DNA of 10,894 nucleotides from a virus (taxonomy: Duplodnaviria > Heunggongvirae > Uroviricota > Caudoviricetes): IMG/VR virus record IMGVR_UViG_2660238349_000010; one strand, written 5' to 3'. The notes below the pieces were generated by a model, which saw only the letters and a program-made list of their open reading frames with translations, did no database searches and had not been told where the DNA came from. Made by a program: the position numbers and the translations under genes. Shown piece after piece: positions 1,400 through 10,894 of the stretch (position 1 is the first letter of the stretch; every line of letters starts with the position of its first letter).

Positions 1400-1425
1400 G
1401 AGAGATAAACGTTGGTTTGGGGGAA
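1400..1425 (+). other. Crossover site 1 (hix/gix-like, 12-bp half-sites around a 2-bp TT core), orientation +
   Basis: GAGAGATAAACG TT GGTTTGGGGGAA. Lies about 55 bp upstream of the pin start and exactly at the 5' boundary of cassette C. The right half-site is identical to that of site 3 on the opposite strand. Confidence 0.6.
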
Positions 1426-1920
1426 GGCTCTGCACTGCCTGTTGGTGTGCCTGTTCCATGGCCCACCGCCACACCGCCAGCAGGCTGGTTAAAGTGCGAC
1501 GGGCGCGCCTTTACAAAAGAACAATATCCTGTTCTGGCCAGAGTCTACCCGACCCTCCGTCTTCCCGATTTGCGCGGTGAGTTTATCCGTGGATGGGACG
1601 ACGGGCGCAAAGTTGATACGGGGCGTTCATTGCTAAGTGGTCAGGCTGCAACATTTATTCGTACAGCTTTGCAGGATTATTACGGTTACGATCTGAATAC
1701 TAATGTCAAAGTAGGTATCGCTTTTGCTACTGCTGATTCTGTTATAACCGTTGGAAACCCAGCTAATCCTAAAGCAGGAAATAATAGCGATTATGTTCCT
1801 GCATCAGCAGATAACTCTATAACGGGTATTCAAAGGACAGCGGAGGATAATTTTACCGGGGCATGGATATCAATGCGCCCCCGCAATGTTGCGTTTAATT
1901 ACATCGTAAGGGCCGCATAA
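1414..1920 (+). CDS. Silent alternative tail-fibre C-terminal cassette C (collar-domain tip); no start codon of its own, promoterless in this orientation
   Basis: Open frame from the site-1 core to TAA at 1918-1920 encoding GLGEGSALPVGVPVPWPTATPPAGWLKCDG...RPRNVAFNYIVRAA. The first ~70 aa and last ~14 aa are shared with the expressed fibre tip; the middle is divergent. Confidence 0.75.
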   Translation, partial: GLGEGSALPVGVPVPWPTATPPAGWLKCDGRAFTKEQYPVLARVYPTLRLPDLRGEFIRGWDDGRKVDTGRSLLSGQAATFIRTALQDYYGYDLNTNVKVGIAFATADSVITVGNPANPKAGNNSDYVPASADNSITGIQRTAEDNFTGAWISMRPRNVAFNYIVRAA

Positions 1921-1939: not shown

Positions 1940-2443
1940 GGCTCGGCGCTACCCGTTGGTGTGCCTGTTCCGTGGCCCACCGCCACACCGCCAGCAGGCT
2001 GGTTACAGTGCAACGGAGCTACGTTCACTAAAGAACAATATCCTGTTCTGGCCAGAGTCTACCCGACCCTCCGTCTTCCCGATTTACGCGGTGAGTTTAT
2101 CCGTGGATGGGACGACGGGCGCAAAGTTGATACAGGACGTAAGTTGCTGTCCGCACAAGGGGCAACGCTGTTAAGAACAGCAATGCTGGATTATTATAAC
2201 CAGGACACTACGGGAACCTCGGGGATAGTCGGCATGGGATTCAACAATGAAGATTCCATTACAGACCTTCGTGAGGGCAGCTTTAAAATGCCGGACGGGA
2301 CAACATTCAGCGATCCTGTCGTGGCAATGTCAGACAATGGTATGCAGGCTACTATTCTGACCTCTATCAGAAGCGGGTATGCGAAGGGTATCACTGTCAG
2401 ACCCCGTAGCATTGCACTTAATTACATTGTGAGGGCAGTTTAA
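1928..2443 (+). CDS. Silent alternative tail-fibre C-terminal cassette B (collar-domain tip), translationally coupled to the downstream tfa
   Basis: Open frame from the site-2 core encoding GLGEGSALPVGVPVPWPTATPPAGWLQCNGATF...RPRSIALNYIVRAV. Its TAA at 2441-2443 overlaps the tfa ATG at 2443 by 1 nt (TAATG). Its first ~200 bp are nearly identical to the reverse complement of 3330-3541. Confidence 0.75.
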   Translation, partial: GLGEGSALPVGVPVPWPTATPPAGWLQCNGATFTKEQYPVLARVYPTLRLPDLRGEFIRGWDDGRKVDTGRKLLSAQGATLLRTAMLDYYNQDTTGTSGIVGMGFNNEDSITDLREGSFKMPDGTTFSDPVVAMSDNGMQATILTSIRSGYAKGITVRPRSIALNYIVRAV

Positions 2444-3057
2444 TGAGTAACACTGCAGTTCTGGATGAAAACGGTATCGCCACTGTAGCGGGCGAGATCA
2501 CTGTATATCACTATGACGAGGAAACCCGGGAATACACCTCATCCTCTGTGGAGTATCTCGCCCTTGGGGTGGGTACTCCGGCACATTCGTGCGCCGATGC
2601 ACCGCCGGAGGCAATTTCGGGTTACGTGGTTTGCCGGACTGCCACGCTGAACGGGTGGGAGCATGTGCCTGATCACCGCGGCGAGACGGTATACAGCACG
2701 GAGAACGGTAACCCCGTTCTGATTACCCAACCGGGTGATTACCCGGCGGACACCACCACAAAACAGCCGGCCACGCCATGGGATACCTGGAACGGTGAGG
2801 CGTGGGTAACCGATACTGAACGGCAGCGAGCCGCAGAACTGGAGGTTGCCAGACAGCAACGCCAGCAACGGGTGAAACAGGCGATGGCGTCCGTCGATCT
2901 TATCAACCTCAAACTGCGTGCTGGTCGCAGTCTGACACCAGAAGAAACGGCAAAACTGAACGCCGTGCTGGATTATATCGACGAGCTGAACGCACTGGAT
3001 ATCAGCACGGCACCTGAAATCAGCTGGCCGGAAGCGCCACTGGCACTTGCCAGCTGA
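2443..3057 (+). CDS. tfa: Tail fibre assembly protein (Tfa/gpG/U-like chaperone), cognate to cassette B
   Basis: 204-aa ORF immediately after cassette B with stop/start overlap. Size, position and acidic C-terminal region (…LNAVLDYIDELNALD…) fit the tail-fibre-assembly family. Converges on the fibre gene, stop to stop, with a 6-bp gap. Confidence 0.7.
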   Translation: MSNTAVLDENGIATVAGEITVYHYDEETREYTSSSVEYLALGVGTPAHSCADAPPEAISGYVVCRTATLNGWEHVPDHRGETVYSTENGNPVLITQPGDYPADTTTKQPATPWDTWNGEAWVTDTERQRAAELEVARQQRQQRVKQAMASVDLINLKLRAGRSLTPEETAKLNAVLDYIDELNALDISTAPEISWPEAPLALAS

Positions 3058-3063
3058 ACGGTA

Positions 3064-4656
3064 TCACGCCGCCCTCACGATATAGTTAAACGCGATATTG
3101 CGGGGGCGGGTTATGTTAAAGAATGCTCCGTTTAATTCGGCTTTTGCGCGACTGTTTGTTCCACCCAGAATTGCGTACCACAAATAATCGCTACGGTAAT
3201 TCCCCGCAAACACCTTATCGCCGCCATAGTCAATATTATTTCCGTTACTCATGTACGAGATATCCAGCGAAGAATCGTTATCGTCATGACCGCCGACCAG
3301 TGTACCTTTCTGCCATGAAAGCAACTTACGCCCCTCGTCAATCTTGCGCCCGTCGTCCCATCCACGGATAAACTCACCGCGTAAATCGGGAAGACGGAGG
3401 GTCGGGTAGACTCTGGCCAGAACAGGATATTGTTCTTTGGTGAACGTAGCTCCGTTGCACTGTAACCAGCCTGCTGGCGGTGTGGCGGTGGGCCACGGAA
3501 CAGGCACACCAACAGGCAATGCAGAGCCTTCCCCCAAACCAAGGTAATTGAGGACATCTTTTATACTGCCCTTAGCGATAATAGCGCGACCAATAGCTGT
3601 AAGGGTTGCCAGCGCTGCGCGGTCTGCTCCGGTAAAATAAGGCAACCGATCTGCTGCAGTGGCAAGTCCTGCCAGAGCAGTGAGCGTGGCATCTGCCGGT
3701 TGTTTTCCGTTTGCCAGATCGTATGCAGCCTTGACCGCTTTCGGTGTGGCGGCCAGTATTTCAGACGTGCTGTTGATGGCACTGCTCAATTGTATGGTGC
3801 CTTTTGCCGTCAGCGAGGCAGCAGGCACTCCCGTTATCTGACTCCACGGGTGAGTGTGGCTGACGGGCGCCTTGCCGGCTGCAAGGTCGTATGCAGCCTT
3901 GACCGCCTTCGGCGTGGCAGCCTCAGTTTCTGATTGACTGTCCGTGGCGCTGCTCAGTTGTACGGTGCCTTTTGCCGTCAGCGAGGCAGCAGGCACTCCC
4001 GTTATCTGACTCCACGGGTGAGTGTGGCTGACGGGGGCCTTGCCGGCAGCCAGGTCATATGCAGCCTTGACGGCCTTTGGTGTGGCGGCCAGCGTTTCAG
4101 AGGTGCTGTTGGTGGCACTGCTCAGTTGTACGATCCCTTTACGGGTCGTTGTTGCATCCTGGGCTGTGTATTTTCCCCGGGCCAGATCATACGCGATTTT
4201 CACAGCCTTCGGCGTGGCAGCCTCAGTTTCTGATTGACTGTCCGTGGCACTGCTCAGCTGTACGGTGCCTTTTGCCGTCAGCGAGGCAGCAGGCACTCCC
4301 GTTATCTGACTCCACGGGTGAGTGTGACTGACGGGTGCCTTGCCGGCTGCAAGGTCGTATGCAGCCTTGACGGCTTTTGGTGTGGCGGCCAGCGTTTCAG
4401 AGGTGCTGTTGGTGGCACTGCTCAGTTGGGTGAACCCCTTAGCTGTCAGTGTCGCGTCCGGGTGGTTACGGGAACGTACGTGTTCAGCCAGTGACTGTGC
4501 GGCTTCCTCCGTTTTTTTCTTCAGCCATTTCGTCCTGTTTGCCAGTTGCCGGGGGGCTCGATTTGATATCCCGTCAGCACCACCCAGAACCGGATCTGAT
4601 GTCTCCAGTTGATAGATTTTTTCTTCCCACTTTTCTGTTTCATTCAGGTTTCCCAT
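3064..4656 (-). CDS. Tail fibre protein (P2 gpH-like N-terminus and shaft repeats; collar-domain C-terminal tip = cassette A currently fused)
   Basis: 530 aa from ATG (minus) at 4656-4654; the ORF track starts 2 codons earlier at TTG 4662. Overlaps the gpI stop. Five copies of the motif TAKGxxQLSSATxSxSETxAATPKAVKxAYDLAxGK, and ...KQPADATLTALAGLATAADRLPYFTG..., recalled as characteristic of P2 H. C-terminal 159 aa after site 3 form the variable tip. Confidence 0.9.
   Translation of the reverse strand: MGNLNETEKWEEKIYQLETSDPVLGGADGISNRAPRQLANRTKWLKKKTEEAAQSLAEHVRSRNHPDATLTAKGFTQLSSATNSTSETLAATPKAVKAAYDLAAGKAPVSHTHPWSQITGVPAASLTAKGTVQLSSATDSQSETEAATPKAVKIAYDLARGKYTAQDATTTRKGIVQLSSATNSTSETLAATPKAVKAAYDLAAGKAPVSHTHPWSQITGVPAASLTAKGTVQLSSATDSQSETEAATPKAVKAAYDLAAGKAPVSHTHPWSQITGVPAASLTAKGTIQLSSAINSTSEILAATPKAVKAAYDLANGKQPADATLTALAGLATAADRLPYFTGADRAALATLTAIGRAIIAKGSIKDVLNYLGLGEGSALPVGVPVPWPTATPPAGWLQCNGATFTKEQYPVLARVYPTLRLPDLRGEFIRGWDDGRKIDEGRKLLSWQKGTLVGGHDDNDSSLDISYMSNGNNIDYGGDKVFAGNYRSDYLWYAILGGTNSRAKAELNGAFFNITRPRNIAFNYIVRAA
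3529..3554 (-). other. Crossover site 3 (hix/gix-like) inside the fibre gene at the constant/variable junction
   Basis: Minus strand reads TCCTCAATTACC TT GGTTTGGGGGAA, encoding LNYLGLGE. The core TT sits in the same codon positions as in sites 1 and 2, so either inversion gives an in-frame fusion. Confidence 0.6.
3700..4450 (-). repeat. In-frame coding tandem repeats of the fibre shaft (units of 36/56/44/56/56 aa)
   Basis: Near-identical DNA blocks, for example about 3900-4030 versus 4200-4330 (about 130 bp with about 3 mismatches, 300 bp apart). Visible in the ORF track as a repeating plus-strand shadow ORF (MTVRG[A/T]AQLYGAFCRQRGSRHSRYLTPRVSV...) at 3934 and 4234. Confidence 0.85.
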
Positions 4657-4658
4657 AA

Positions 4659-5237
4659 TCAACTGCTCCCGTGGTTATAACTGCCATCATGGATGGCGGT
4701 ATTGTTATAGCGAATGGCCACAGACTGATACTCCAGGCTGGCCAGATGGCAGCGGGCCGGTGCAAATGCAGCGAGCGTCTGACGCAGCATCGCGGCCTGA
4801 TCGTTAGTAATGGGCTGTTTCAGAATAACGCGATAAACCGCCCAGGCGGCTGCATCTCCATGAACAAACAGTCCGTTATAGCTGCGATTGCCGTCGTAAC
4901 TGAGACGACCTGTGCCTTCAATCAGATCCACTTCACCAAAGCCAAAACGGCGGATAACTTCCCGGATTGACCACGGCGTCCCTTTATACCGGTGTAGTTC
5001 GATGGCTGCTTTTATAAGCATGCGGCGAACATCGTCCGATTCCGCCAGCTCCCAGCCATCGCCAGACAGTGAGAACTGCTCGCCCAGCCATGGCAGCGCA
5101 GAACTGTCGACGATATCGACGAGAAAGACCATCAGTACGCTCAGGTCGATGTTATCCAGCCGCCCTGCCAGTCTTCCCAGCGTCCTGAGACTGATATCAC
5201 CCTCAAGCGGTGGCGGGAGTTGTAATGGCTCAGTCAT
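4659..5237 (-). CDS. Baseplate/tail protein gpI-like (Mu gp48 position)
   Basis: 192 aa from ATG at 5237-5235 (ORF track starts at GTG 5249). The ATG overlaps the gpJ-like stop (ATGACTGA). Position between the J-like gene and the fibre gene matches P2 I and Mu gp48. Family call from synteny and size. Confidence 0.7.
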   Translation of the reverse strand: MTEPLQLPPPLEGDISLRTLGRLAGRLDNIDLSVLMVFLVDIVDSSALPWLGEQFSLSGDGWELAESDDVRRMLIKAAIELHRYKGTPWSIREVIRRFGFGEVDLIEGTGRLSYDGNRSYNGLFVHGDAAAWAVYRVILKQPITNDQAAMLRQTLAAFAPARCHLASLEYQSVAIRYNNTAIHDGSYNHGSS

Positions 5238-6333
5238 CAGACACTCCACTCATGTTAAGTGTGATCGCCGTACAGTTTGCCCATTCGTTTTCTGCCACCA
5301 CCCTCAGTGCCGGTGTCACCAGTTCAACCTGGTACACCCCGGAAACGGACAATGCACTGATAATCTGGCTGGGGACAATATCACGCCCCAGCGTGGCGGC
5401 ACGTGATGCCACCCAGTTCTGTATGGCGCTGTTAGCGGCATCTTTTACAGACCTGGCATCCTGATCACGATAGATCGTAATCCTGGCTTCAATGGTGTAA
5501 TCCACCTTCACTGGTGTTTTAGCCCGCACTGTATCAGTGAGTGGCCTGACTTTCTCATCAGAGCAGAAACTCTCTACCAGCGTGAGAACACCGCCGTCCG
5601 GCAGACCGGTACTGAGCAGCGGATACAGATCTACGGTCCCGGGAACCGGGGAAAGCACAGCAACATCGACAATGTTGGGATGGGCCTGCATGGCATGAAA
5701 GCGGTATGCGCCACGGCTTCCGGCATTGGTGAATGACTCCGGGGCCAGCCTGATACGCTCCCGGAGCCTGTCATCGTCTTCCTGTTCTGAACCGCCGGAA
5801 CTGGCCGTCAGATTGCTCACCAGCAGGTCGACGTTATCAATCTCATCGAGTAACTGACTGACCTGCGCAGGTTGCCAGCCGTTACCAGCGGTACCGGGTT
5901 CGGTACAGGTGGACGTGACATTGACCAGCAGCAATCCGGCCTTCAGTACCACATCTGTATCGGTGGCAAAAATAACGCTGTCGGAAGCGCTGACGCGGGT
6001 GCCTGCCGGGATCAGCACATCAATGGTCAGTGCCTCATCCACAGAGAACTGAAGTGTGGTGGTGGCAGGCTGCGCGGCAAGGCGGTATACACCAACCAGT
6101 TCTCCGAGGTAATCAATCATCGGCTCTCGTGAAAAGGCGACCAGATTCTGCTTTGCTGCCTCCTGTACCGCAACCCTGACCAGCATTTCGCGATAGGCCC
6201 ACAGATCAATCAGCAGACGTTCTGCCTGTGCCGGGTACAGCGTTTTGCCGGTATCCGCTTCATACTTCGCAATCATTTCTGCCGTGATTTTGTCGGCATC
6301 GCGTTCAATAAAATCGGGTTCTGTCAGCGCCAT
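5230..6333 (-). CDS. Baseplate assembly protein gpJ-like (Mu gp47 position)
   Basis: 367-aa ORF whose start overlaps the gpW-like stop by 10 nt. Size and position fit baseplate J. Family call from synteny and size, moderate. Confidence 0.75.
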   Translation of the reverse strand: MALTEPDFIERDADKITAEMIAKYEADTGKTLYPAQAERLLIDLWAYREMLVRVAVQEAAKQNLVAFSREPMIDYLGELVGVYRLAAQPATTTLQFSVDEALTIDVLIPAGTRVSASDSVIFATDTDVVLKAGLLLVNVTSTCTEPGTAGNGWQPAQVSQLLDEIDNVDLLVSNLTASSGGSEQEDDDRLRERIRLAPESFTNAGSRGAYRFHAMQAHPNIVDVAVLSPVPGTVDLYPLLSTGLPDGGVLTLVESFCSDEKVRPLTDTVRAKTPVKVDYTIEARITIYRDQDARSVKDAANSAIQNWVASRAATLGRDIVPSQIISALSVSGVYQVELVTPALRVVAENEWANCTAITLNMSGVSDD

Positions 6334-6671
6334 AGCAACTCCTGAGTCCGGGTCTGTCCGTCTGAGCCTTTCCAGCTCACCCGGAGCGTAAGATGTTCGC
6401 CGTCGACGGCGGGTTTAACTGACATAAGCTGGCAGCGGGGCTCCCAGCGTCGGATGGCATCGACGGATTCGCGCACCACATGCGGAATGGCCCGGTCTAC
6501 AGGCCAGTCGATATAAAGATGCAGATTGCTGCCGAACTCCGGGCGATGCGGGTCGCTGCCGCGGGGAGTCCGCAGGATAATTTGAATCGCCTGCCGGATA
6601 TCATCCAGCCCCCGGACAATTTCGCCGGGAGCCTGCAGGGTCGGTTGCCAGAATACTGAGGTTGTTTTCAT
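6324..6671 (-). CDS. Baseplate protein gpW / gp25-like (Mu gp46 position)
   Basis: 115-aa ORF, the typical size of the GPW_gp25 family, sitting between the spike and J-like genes. Confidence 0.75.
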   Translation of the reverse strand: MKTTSVFWQPTLQAPGEIVRGLDDIRQAIQIILRTPRGSDPHRPEFGSNLHLYIDWPVDRAIPHVVRESVDAIRRWEPRCQLMSVKPAVDGEHLTLRVSWKGSDGQTRTQELLWR

Positions 6672-9575: not shown

Positions 9576-10894
9576 CAGCGGTACTCCTTACGTTGTTTCT
9601 GAGCCAGCAGACGCTCCAGCATTTTTTCCAGCTCATGCAGACTCATATTCAGGGCACCAGTCAGTCCTGCAGGCGCTGTGGTTTCCCTGCCATTGAGGAA
9701 AAACTGAGGATTAAAGCTGACCTGGATACCACCAGACGTTCCACCGCCGGTTGCAGCTGCACCACGGCCTGAATATCCGGCAGCCAGGATTTCAGGCGAG
9801 GGGATACGGGGAACATCCGGTGTCATCTCATTTGCCAGACGTTGCCCTGGTAAAATCGATGCCCGGGTGGAGAGCGGAATAACGGGCATGGAAGACAAAC
9901 TATTGATTACGGCTCCGATCGCATTTTTAGCAGACGACATAAACCCATTGATATCGGGCAACGGCATACTGAAGCGAACACCTGAAGTGTTATCCCGTAT
10001 TTCTGGCCCCTGAATGCTCACGGGCATTCTGGGGAGCAGTTCACTGGCCATTCGCTGCCCGGCCAGAGCTGCAAGCGGAGTGGTCCGCTGCAGGCCAATG
10101 GCGGCCCCCTGCGCGATATTGTCACCAAAGCCCATAAACACGCGGCTCGGCGAATGAATGCCCAGCTTTTCGCTGAACCAGCCACTGATGCTGTCACCCA
10201 TTCCGGTTACACTGGATTTGAGCGACTCCCATTTGTTTTTGATACCGTTAATCAGACCGTCGACAAGATGGCCACCGAAGTCGGTGAACTTTGCCGGCAG
10301 ATCAACACCAAGATATTTCAGCGCAGCTGCAAAGGCTTTATAGAGCAGACCTGCCGGCGACCAGTTAATCAGCAGCTTACCAGTTCCCGCGATACCGCCG
10401 TTAAAGGCTTCCTGAATGTCAGCCCAGCACTGTTTAAACCAGCTACTGATGCTGTCACCCATTCCGGTTACACTGGATTTGAGCGACCCCCATTTGTTTT
10501 TGATACCGTTAATCAGACCGTCGATAAGATGGCCACCGAAGTCGGTGAACTTTGCCGGCAGAGCAACGCCGAAATATTTCAGCGCAGCCGCAAAGGCTTT
10601 ATAGAGCAGGCCTGCCGGCGACCAGTTAATCAGCAACTTACCAATTCCCACAATGCCGCCGTTAAAGGCTTCCTGAATGTCAGCCCAGCGCTGTTTAAAC
10701 CAGCTACTGATGCTGTCACCCATTCCGGTTACACTGGATTTGAGCGACCCCCATTTGATTTTGATACCGTTAATCAGACCGTCGATAAGATGGCCACCGA
10801 AGTCGGTGAACTTTGCCGGCAGAGCAACGCCGAAATATTTCAGCGCAGCCGCAAAGGCTTTATAGAGCAGGCCTGCCGGCGACCAGTTAATCAG
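9575..10894 (-). CDS. Tail tape measure protein, 3' part (5' end lies beyond the window)
   Basis: Long minus-strand frame open to the window edge, directly upstream of the gpU/X/D genes. Contains 87-aa tandem repeats and a Gly/Ala-rich C-terminal region. Assignment rests on synteny and repeat architecture. Confidence 0.7.
   Translation of the reverse strand: MINWSPAGLLYKAFAAALKYFGVALPAKFTDFGGHLIDGLINGIKIKWGSLKSSVTGMGDSISSWFKQRWADIQEAFNGGIVGIGKLLINWSPAGLLYKAFAAALKYFGVALPAKFTDFGGHLIDGLINGIKNKWGSLKSSVTGMGDSISSWFKQCWADIQEAFNGGIAGTGKLLINWSPAGLLYKAFAAALKYLGVDLPAKFTDFGGHLVDGLINGIKNKWESLKSSVTGMGDSISGWFSEKLGIHSPSRVFMGFGDNIAQGAAIGLQRTTPLAALAGQRMASELLPRMPVSIQGPEIRDNTSGVRFSMPLPDINGFMSSAKNAIGAVINSLSSMPVIPLSTRASILPGQRLANEMTPDVPRIPSPEILAAGYSGRGAAATGGGTSGGIQVSFNPQFFLNGRETTAPAGLTGALNMSLHELEKMLERLLAQKQRKEYR
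10174..10894 (-). repeat. 261-bp (87-aa) in-frame tandem repeat array within the tape-measure gene, truncated by the window end
   Basis: Units at about 10174-10434, 10435-10695 and 10696-10894+ with only a few substitutions. Seen in the ORF track as plus-strand shadow ORFs at 10158, 10416 and 10677, all containing ...LNQ[L/P]LMLSPIPVTLDLSD... Confidence 0.85.

Follow-up and report, generated by a model that had tools for sequence, protein, structure and literature searches.

We examined 10,894 nucleotides of viral DNA (IMG/VR record IMGVR_UViG_2660238349_000010; hereafter the window), in which a transposable prophage of the Mu-like, BcepMu type carries a tail-fibre inversion locus at its right end; the prophage is of the same family as prophage Phi2 of Escherichia coli EC958. 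The locus carries three alternative 3′ cassettes for one tail-fibre gene, and each cassette opens with a closely similar block of about 213 nt that abuts a crossover site. The relationships among these blocks, within the window and across related prophages, are the subject of this analysis.

Organisation of the inversion locus

A serine DNA invertase gene of the Gin/Pin/Cin/Hin type occupies positions 773–1345 on the minus strand and encodes 190 amino acids (Pfam Resolvase, E = 8e-51; HTH_7, E = 1e-12). Its product is listed in relatives as recombinase family protein WP_000904922.1 and is 70–76% identical to annotated phage DNA invertases (gin). After a gap of 67 nt comes crossover site 1 (1400–1425, core 1412–1413), read from the sequence as GAGAGATAAACG TT GGTTTGGGGGAA and identical to 'Phi2_3prime' of EC958. 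Site 2 (1914–1939, core 1926–1927; CGCATAAAAACG TT GGTTTAGGAGAA, also read from the sequence) is in direct orientation relative to site 1, and site 3 (3529–3554, core 3541–3542; on the minus strand TCCTCAATTACC TT GGTTTGGGGGAA) is inverted relative to both. Each is a 26-bp site with two imperfect 12-bp half-sites around a TT/AA core. The constant-side half of site 3 is 'Phi2_5prime' of EC958, the outer-flank halves of sites 1 and 3 match the published EC958 Phi2 sites exactly, and the cassette-side half-sites, TTCCCCCAAACC and TTCTCCTAAACC, agree with the published consensus. Scanning for a Fis enhancer returned one match to the strict consensus, itself degenerate, at 1261–1275 (invertase codons 24–28), and none 48 bp away.

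Two silent tail-fibre cassettes follow on the plus strand, C (1414–1920) and B (1928–2443). Cassette A (3064–3540, minus strand) is joined in frame to the constant N-terminal region of the fibre gene (3543–4656, minus strand), which has five Pfam Phage_fiber_2 stretches and internal repeats at 3713–4462. This is the arrangement currently expressed; the open reading frame spans 3064–4662 and is annotated as a single coding sequence in the related locus L001. A tail fibre assembly gene (tfa; 2443–3057, plus strand; Pfam Caudo_TAP, E = 3.5e-28) is co-oriented with cassette B only. Cassettes A and C have no co-oriented assembly gene, and with either one joined to the shaft, what follows downstream is a further silent cassette or tfa in antisense.

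The cassettes share a common plan. All start directly after the 2-bp core of their site with a 5′ collar block, continue into a variable middle, or tip, and finish with a short conserved 3′ end; cassette C closes with this conserved C-terminal end and a stop codon. The repeat finder placed the 3′ end of cassette C at 1876–1920 on the plus strand (RPRNVAFNYIVRAA and stop), with counterparts at 2402–2443 in cassette B and at 3064–3108, minus strand, in cassette A. These ends constitute a second, short homology, so that each variable tip is flanked by shared sequence. The three sites yield overlapping invertible segments and more than two gene fusions, as in Min-type multiple inversion.

The collar block and its copies

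The block copies lie at 1414–1626 (copy C, the feature under study, at the 5′ end of cassette C; plus strand), 1928–2140 (copy B, plus strand) and 3328–3540 (copy A, minus strand). The original prediction, made from the window alone, was that a conserved block follows every crossover site and gives long homology in both orientations, and the repeat finder and alignments bear this out. The former returned a direct repeat between 1407–1682 and 1921–2196 (276 nt, 85%) and inverted repeats between 1923–2151 and 3317–3545 (229 nt, 93%) and between 1409–1634 and 3320–3545 (226 nt, 90%). Aligned pairwise over 213 nt from the base after each 2-bp core, the copies are 90.6–93.0% identical: 93.0% for A and B (15 mismatches), 91.5% for A and C, and 90.6% for B and C. 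The description of A and B as almost base-perfect holds for the central 170 nt, with one mismatch and perfect runs of 74 and 95 bp, and does not extend to the two block ends. The longest perfect runs between B and C and between A and C are 56 bp. Three copies of such length and identity are far beyond chance, and these perfect runs exceed the minimal processing segment for homologous recombination, which is about 25–30 bp.

In all three cassettes the block encodes the phage tail collar domain (Pfam Collar, PF07484; E = 3.5e-15 to 6.6e-16, the latter for copy C), which in the full protein containing copy A spans residues 385–432. The translations confirm the predicted protein difference, KCDGRAF in C against QCNGATF in A and B. 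It falls in a 24-nt patch that is K-type in block C (1492–1515, plus strand; LKCDGRAF); the patch of block B (2006–2029, plus strand) is Q-type in the window and K-type in L001, and that of block A lies at 3439–3462. Over its full length the cassette can be aligned to the receptor-binding tip of T4 gp37 (PDB 2xgf, E = 2e-15), and the alignment reaches the C-terminus (RNIAFNYIVRAA versus KNIAFNYIVRLA, including NIAFNYIVR). As the collar is the joint to the constant shaft, there is a protein-level reason for the block to be conserved.

The block is already known from the literature as a feature of the EC958 Phi2 family. Forde et al. 2014 (PMC4134206) described a '26 bp + 197 bp = 227 bp imperfect inverted repeat' in EC958 Phi2, an invertible 3′ part that encodes a collar domain, and inversion seen as alternative PacBio contigs of EC958. 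Table 3 of that paper gives the two outer sites only, and takes up neither the internal third site nor exchange between the repeats.

Switch isomers and their junctions

Two direct sites and one inverted site allow four arrangements, and all four occur among relatives. The window's own order (invertase, C and B with tfa pointing away from it, A fused to the constant part; T1) recurs in L001, L003, L004, L008 and L009. In T2, C and A point away from the invertase and B, with tfa reversed, is fused to the constant part (L096, L011 and, with cassettes E and F, EC958). T3 has B and tfa pointing away, then A reversed, then C fused to the constant part (L007, L010, L098, L099), and T4 has A pointing away, then tfa and B reversed, then C fused (L093, L012). 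Cassette C is accordingly joined to the shaft in L007, L010, L093, L098 and L099, and cassette B in L011, L096 and others.

In lineages with resolving markers, isomer junctions, those at site 2 among them, map to windows of 7–24 nt that contain the 2-bp core. Between L012 and L011 these windows are at most 12 nt, with the cores inside, and between L012 and EC958 all three junctions fall between alignment columns 24/29 and 35. A form lacking cassette C (L002 and L005) has its junction at the site, outside the block. The P1-like IncY phage-plasmid pAVS0973-B (NZ_CP124473.1; L102) carries a B-tfa-A segment (5022–6648) that is 100% identical over 1,627 bp to that of L010 (2213–3839; 1921–3547 in the window). 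The identity begins and ends within 5 nt of two cores and the neighbouring DNA is 85–88% identical, which looks like a site-bounded transfer of the whole invertible segment between unrelated phages. The bounding of both the isomer junctions and the plasmid segment at cores indicates that routine switching and segment transfer proceed via the sites. Such junctions are what the chemistry of serine invertases predicts, as these enzymes exchange strands at a 2-bp stagger, without branch migration.

Two further features touch on the sites. An IS26 element lies close to the remnant of the invertase gene of pAVS0973-B. In L005 (NZ_CP024275.1, strain M9682-C1), the core of site 1, at about 2216 (window 1412–1413), is short of one base, reading AAACGTGGTTT and not AAACGTTGGTTT. 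If real, this loss in a two-cassette prophage should lock the switch; a sequencing error is possible.

The original prediction held that the blocks could support homologous rearrangement independently of the invertase, with junctions inside the blocks and not at the cores. The genomes support this in part. Ordinary isomers, where markers resolve them, have their junctions at cores, and candidates for block-internal junctions are the CCUG 73778 type, L105 and L097, described below. Homology-dependent exchange between the blocks is evident, mostly as gene conversion; as a main route of rearrangement the proposal is not supported.

Exchange between block copies

The block copies are mosaic. Over the first ~27 nt A and C agree against B, in the 24-nt patch A and B agree against C, and at the distal end B and C agree against A. 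The 25 informative sites among the three copies form six runs, and none of 100,000 permutations gave as few (P < 1e-5). Recent conversion tracts are also apparent between near-identical prophages. Across about 3,970 bp, 11 positions separate the window from L001 (strain S21EC), and ten of these fall within 2006–2029, the patch of block B. In L001 this patch equals the strain's own C patch at all ten positions; in the window it equals the window's own A patch at nine of ten. The tenth, a T at 2029, is a third allele (the A copy has C, the C copy has A) that is also found in strain EBJ003. One insertion in irp2 is common to three complete genomes. Of these, AVS0575 (L093) and Z0117EC0055 (L096) show no differences in the invertase flank, in cassette C or in B-tfa; they differ in isomer, in one single-nucleotide polymorphism (SNP) across 2,100 bp of the constant part, and in ten patch SNPs that change the A patch from Q-type to the K-type of its neighbours B and C. 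Within the sequence type 131 (ST131) Phi2 lineage, which has the aroA insertion, AZ 191 differs from EC958 by exactly five SNPs in 6,824 bp, through which block E gains the proximal markers of B.

Tips and block segments are likewise re-associated across the sample. Tip B is seen with four proximal and four patch types and tip A with about seven proximal and four patch types, giving 7–8 proximal/patch combinations for each, and designed synthetic hybrid blocks were matched at 100% identity in complete genomes. The 5- and 10-SNP clusters, the mosaic test and the haplotype table all place ends of exchange tracts inside the repeats, away from the cores.

The near-identity of the copies could instead stem from purifying selection on the collar and recent cassette duplication, with no exchange between copies. 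In favour of this, the block is a Pfam collar domain with homology to collars of defined structure, and its protein sequence is conserved, with a proportion of non-synonymous differences (pN) of 0.02–0.05. A second phage family, with invertases 84–86% identical, provides the contrast. In the 93-nt block core, the proportion of synonymous differences (pS) is 0–0.044 among the window copies and 0.73–0.79 against that family, which encodes the same domain; protein constraint therefore does not require identity of the DNA, and alone it is insufficient to explain the near-identity of the copies at that level. The mosaic runs, moreover, are incompatible with simple divergence after duplication, as are clustered 5- and 10-SNP differences between otherwise identical prophages. 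We regard selection and duplication by themselves as a very improbable explanation.

The C tip of the second family shows the opposite relationship, being still 93–97% identical to the window's. Window positions 1641–1920 are 93% identical to 3712–3991 of L077, 4076–4355 of L087 and 1969–2248 of L080, whereas the block preceding the tip is only about 73% identical, and similarity resumes just beyond the distal block edge. This argues that tips have been exchanged between the families with a breakpoint there. Given low pS within the locus and high pS between families that share a like tip, the blocks follow the locus and not the tip, a pattern that reads as a hallmark of concerted evolution. 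In that second family, loci L077, L080 and L087 (eight blocks each), L090 (seven) and L052 and L082 (six) are tandem cassette arrays whose invertases show the same 84–86% identity. The array cassettes measure ~440–515 bp, each with a crossover site and collar block first and ...NYIVRAA last, and their blocks are mosaics of a few segment variants. With up to eight cassettes, these arrays are far larger than the window's set of three.

Repeated blocks in cultures that contain several isomers might also be misassembled or mispolished, and apparent conversions and swaps could then be artefacts. Inversion is active in culture, as the alternative contigs of EC958 attest. If short reads anchored in the flanks of one isomer were used to polish a contig ordered as in another, exactly the markers nearest the cores would be swapped, as in L103, and such a swap could reach about 150–250 nt, as in L105. 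Several observations do not fit this origin. The B(Avp,K) haplotype is constant in three assemblies of one lineage, whichever flank adjoins B, and two-cassette loci such as CE10 carry B(Ep,K) with no E cassette to supply reads. The window's Qt patch allele is present in two independent genomes and is no mixture of the other alleles. In L093 the inner patch has changed and the markers nearer the flank have not, and one-sided changes such as that in L104 misfit a simple mixture. The non-reciprocal events are thus robust against mixed-isomer artefacts, and we consider an artefactual origin of the conversions and swaps improbable.

Another possibility is that the exchanges are real and RecA-independent, arising by template switching during replication or by action of the invertase at quasi-sites within the blocks. 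Clustered multi-base changes that bring imperfect repeats closer together, as seen here, are a hallmark of template-switch mutagenesis. Invertases of the Gin/Pin family can use quasi-sites, to judge by the titles of papers by Iida and Hiestand-Nauer from 1986 and 1987. The copies are 0.5–2.1 kb apart, which is far for template switching, and a patch internal to the block would take two exchanges, which quasi-sites are unlikely to provide; by inspection only, with no formal scan, we noticed no sequence resembling a 26-bp site inside the block. RecA-independent exchange therefore appears to us about as improbable as an artefact.

Candidate crossovers inside the blocks

Reciprocal exchange between inverted blocks would invert the intervening DNA and leave a hybrid block at each end. 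One candidate is CCUG 73778, which differs from EC958 by exactly ten SNPs in 6,824 bp, corresponding to a reciprocal swap of five proximal markers between E and B. Both swapped blocks, at 100% identity and 1,772 bp apart, are present in four independent complete genomes (CCUG 73778, 21AR0807, g1-11 and MSB1_4E). The swap is the expected product of one homologous inversion plus one site-specific inversion. In a clade test, the swapped ST131 genomes shared no other SNPs within the 6.8-kb locus. The isomer needed to fake the CCUG 73778 pattern is T3, and it is found in none of 12 native ST131-type genomes, of which five are T2 and seven have E and B adjacent. The reciprocal swaps are plausibly real, although chimeric assembly of mixed isomers could mimic them, as it could the pattern of L105.

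A second candidate is L105 (strain 446). On the invertase side its block has E-type markers as far as column 189 at least and F-type markers from column 218 on; on the constant side the markers are F-type as far as column 258 and E-type from column 260 on. This hybrid pair is suggestive of one crossover between E and F blocks in inverted orientation, together with a short conversion tract. In the third, the two-cassette locus L097, a hybrid with C-type proximal and B-type distal sequence lies beside the invertase, as predicted for deletion of C between direct copies. The B-block haplotype of L097 is also found in the three-cassette loci L098 and L099, and therefore conversion followed by a rare site-specific deletion fits equally well. 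For this reason we leave L097 as an ambiguous case of C × B deletion. Two other loci were set aside. L016, which has a C/A hybrid block, was downgraded as a case of homologous deletion: it is a single draft viral contig, and the exact hybrid occurs in no complete genome (best match 99.4%). L094, with two cassettes and EC958's aroA insertion, was considered as a possible replacement with its breakpoint in the block; the entire segment between its sites is 99.5% identical to the one in L007, so that a site-bounded swap fits equally.

Crossover-type inversions and deletions are plausible on these alignments, and the loci above are natural candidates for them. It is a further step to propose that the blocks provide a significant switching route that is RecA-dependent and needs no invertase, by inversion of A with B or C and loss of C between the direct C and B copies. 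The perfect runs of 56–95 bp would permit it, and the exact reciprocal proximal swaps in CCUG 73778 and three further genomes, the E/F and F/E hybrids of L105 with junctions about 190–260 nt from the cores, the C/B hybrid next to the invertase in L097, the draft C/A hybrid of L016 and the absence of the confounding isomer from the 12 native ST131-type genomes all speak for it. Against it stand the resolvable isomer junctions, which contain cores, the junction of the C-less L002/L005 form at a site, the occurrence of the L097 haplotype in L098 and L099, the lack of the exact L016 hybrid in any complete genome, the capacity of hybrid assemblies from inverting populations to yield chimeric blocks, and the mostly non-reciprocal nature of the documented exchanges. 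On balance we hold such a route to be possible and somewhat doubtful.

A model for block maintenance

Taken as a whole, the observations are best explained, in our view with good confidence, by a three-site switch whose collar blocks are homogenised and reshuffled by homologous recombination. The Gin/Pin-type invertase recombines the three 26-bp sites, joining A, B or C to the constant shaft, and the collar block would be kept because it must fit that shaft. Homologous recombination between copies would both maintain and reshuffle the near-identical block DNA, mainly by non-reciprocal gene conversion in short tracts (about 24 to under 200 bp), and occasional reciprocal crossovers would probably invert DNA with a junction inside the block. 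Homologous exchange would act more slowly, as a second layer that keeps the blocks alike and brings their segments into new combinations with tips.

The anatomy, the isomers, the mosaic copies and the recent conversion tracts are shown by the sequences; the enzymology, which we would assign to RecA-dependent host recombination, possibly between phage copies during replication, is inferred. Several points weigh against this model or parts of it. There are no Chi sites in the invertible region, the sole one lying in yccA at position 165. The T at 2029 in block B of the window matches neither A nor C, which calls for a donor outside the locus or an extra mutation. As the block is present at up to nine or ten places per genome, some exchange may take place between co-resident prophages or phage-plasmids and not within one locus. 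The direction of each conversion is assigned by parsimony. Lastly, the reciprocal swaps and hybrid blocks could be the chimeric consensus of mixed-isomer cultures.

We also considered whether the two kinds of recombination are coupled, such that abortive double-strand cleavage by the invertase at the cores seeds repair from another block copy. Under such coupling, conversion tracts would start preferentially at the cores and run into the blocks, which would account for the observation that it is the 6–55 nt next to the cores that most often turn up with foreign tips (for example, B with Avp, Cp or Ep, A with Bp, Cp or Ep, and E with Bp). We think coupling unlikely. Were it true, the invertase itself would drive both the homogeneity of the collar blocks and their exchangeability between phages of the Mu-like, P1-like and P2/e14-like kinds.

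The prophage family

The window starts with yccA (1–660), and the prophage right end begins from about 695, ~35 bp past the yccA stop codon (within 661–772). Relatives at 97–99.8% identity reside in many E. coli genomes, with some match in 1,887 of 5,426; roughly 600 complete genomes match the block over its full length. Their chromosomal neighbours all differ and are often truncated (kefF, ybcJ, gcd, cysM, gspL, irp2, aroA and others), which is the signature of a transposable phage. Among L001–L010 and L093–L105, the same prophage end abuts or truncates irp2, gcd, gspL, yjjI, a lambdoid prophage and other genes. The tail and baseplate genes are 97.7% identical to those of phage PhiKM, a Bcepmuvirus that carries a transposase, Gam, GemA and Mu-numbered morphogenesis genes. 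Strain DETEC-S566 has two copies of the prophage, which differ in isomer and block haplotypes.

Repeats occur elsewhere in the tail genes as well. The Phage_fiber_2 repeats of the constant part measure 168/300 nt (3713–4462, minus strand). Units with an HTHPW motif number three in the window and L001, four in L003 and L004, and six in L009, L093, L096 and L099; as these prophages are otherwise near-identical, repeat expansion and contraction appear to be active in the tail-fibre gene. At 10176–10894, three tandem 261-bp repeats, 94–95% identical, extend past the end of the window. The gene that contains them lies upstream of the baseplate genes and most likely encodes the tape measure.

Comparison with known inversion systems

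The locus belongs to a known kind, the Min/Cin/Gin-type tail-fibre inversion switch, and is no new kind of system. Its closest counterpart is EC958 Phi2, a member of the same family with an identical invertase (WP_000904922.1), the same outer site halves and the same 227-bp repeat. The two differ in cassettes (E, F and B in EC958; C, B and A in the window) and in insertion point (next to aroA in EC958, next to yccA in the window).

Min of plasmid p15B has six 26-bp sites within the tail-fibre gene, overlapping segments and a serine invertase, and the C segment of P1 has long inverted repeats of about 0.6 kb inside its crossover sites. The window locus resembles both in its serine invertase, in sites placed in a tail-fibre gene and in long repeats inside the sites, and resembles Min in having more than two sites; for P1 there is the further link that a P1-like IncY plasmid carries the window-type B-tfa-A segment. 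Unlike Min, with its six sites, the window locus has three sites and four isomers and belongs to a Mu-like transposable prophage, and, unlike in Min/Cin, only one of its three cassettes has its own assembly gene. Sandmeier, Iida and Arber, in work dated 1990–1994, reportedly noted conserved motifs by the crossover sites of Min and P1 and proposed them as a driver of tail-fibre evolution.

The G segment of Mu and the P segment of e14 each have two sites and offer two alternatives, both of which come with an assembly gene of their own. Like Mu Gin and e14 Pin, the present system is a phage right-end switch beside an invertase gene of the same family, with a constant part and alternative variable parts. 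The repeats around the Mu sites are short, about 34 bp, whereas the window blocks are about 213 nt (227–229 nt with the site). R64-type shufflons, in which the recombinase Rci varies a pilus adhesin, similarly use several short cassettes and multiple inversions to give alternative C-termini. Rci is a tyrosine recombinase acting on different sites; the window enzyme is a serine resolvase-type protein and its target a phage fibre.

For the homologous layer, the nearest parallel is the inverted tufA and tufB genes of Salmonella, in which Abdulkarim and Hughes are said to have described, in 1996, gene conversion between dispersed repeats. In both cases short non-reciprocal tracts would keep copies nearly identical at synonymous positions and occasional crossovers would invert the intervening DNA. 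The tuf copies are whole housekeeping genes, whereas those in the window are shared 5′ modules of cassettes that abut site-specific sites.

Implications

The textbook device with which temperate phages alternate between host ranges is the tail-fibre inversion switch. Linkage between block haplotype and tip offers a cheap assay, from natural variation, that separates site-specific from homologous events. Consensus genomes of inverting loci may be chimeric and should be read with that in mind; continual reshuffling of the blocks, if true, would itself explain why assemblies and annotations of such loci are error-prone. For the phages, the collar block can be viewed as an adaptor that allows any tip on a given shaft. 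If the blocks are continually homogenised and reshuffled, this would explain how very different tips keep an interchangeable joint, and how tips move among unrelated phages of the Mu-like, P1-like and P2/e14-like groups.

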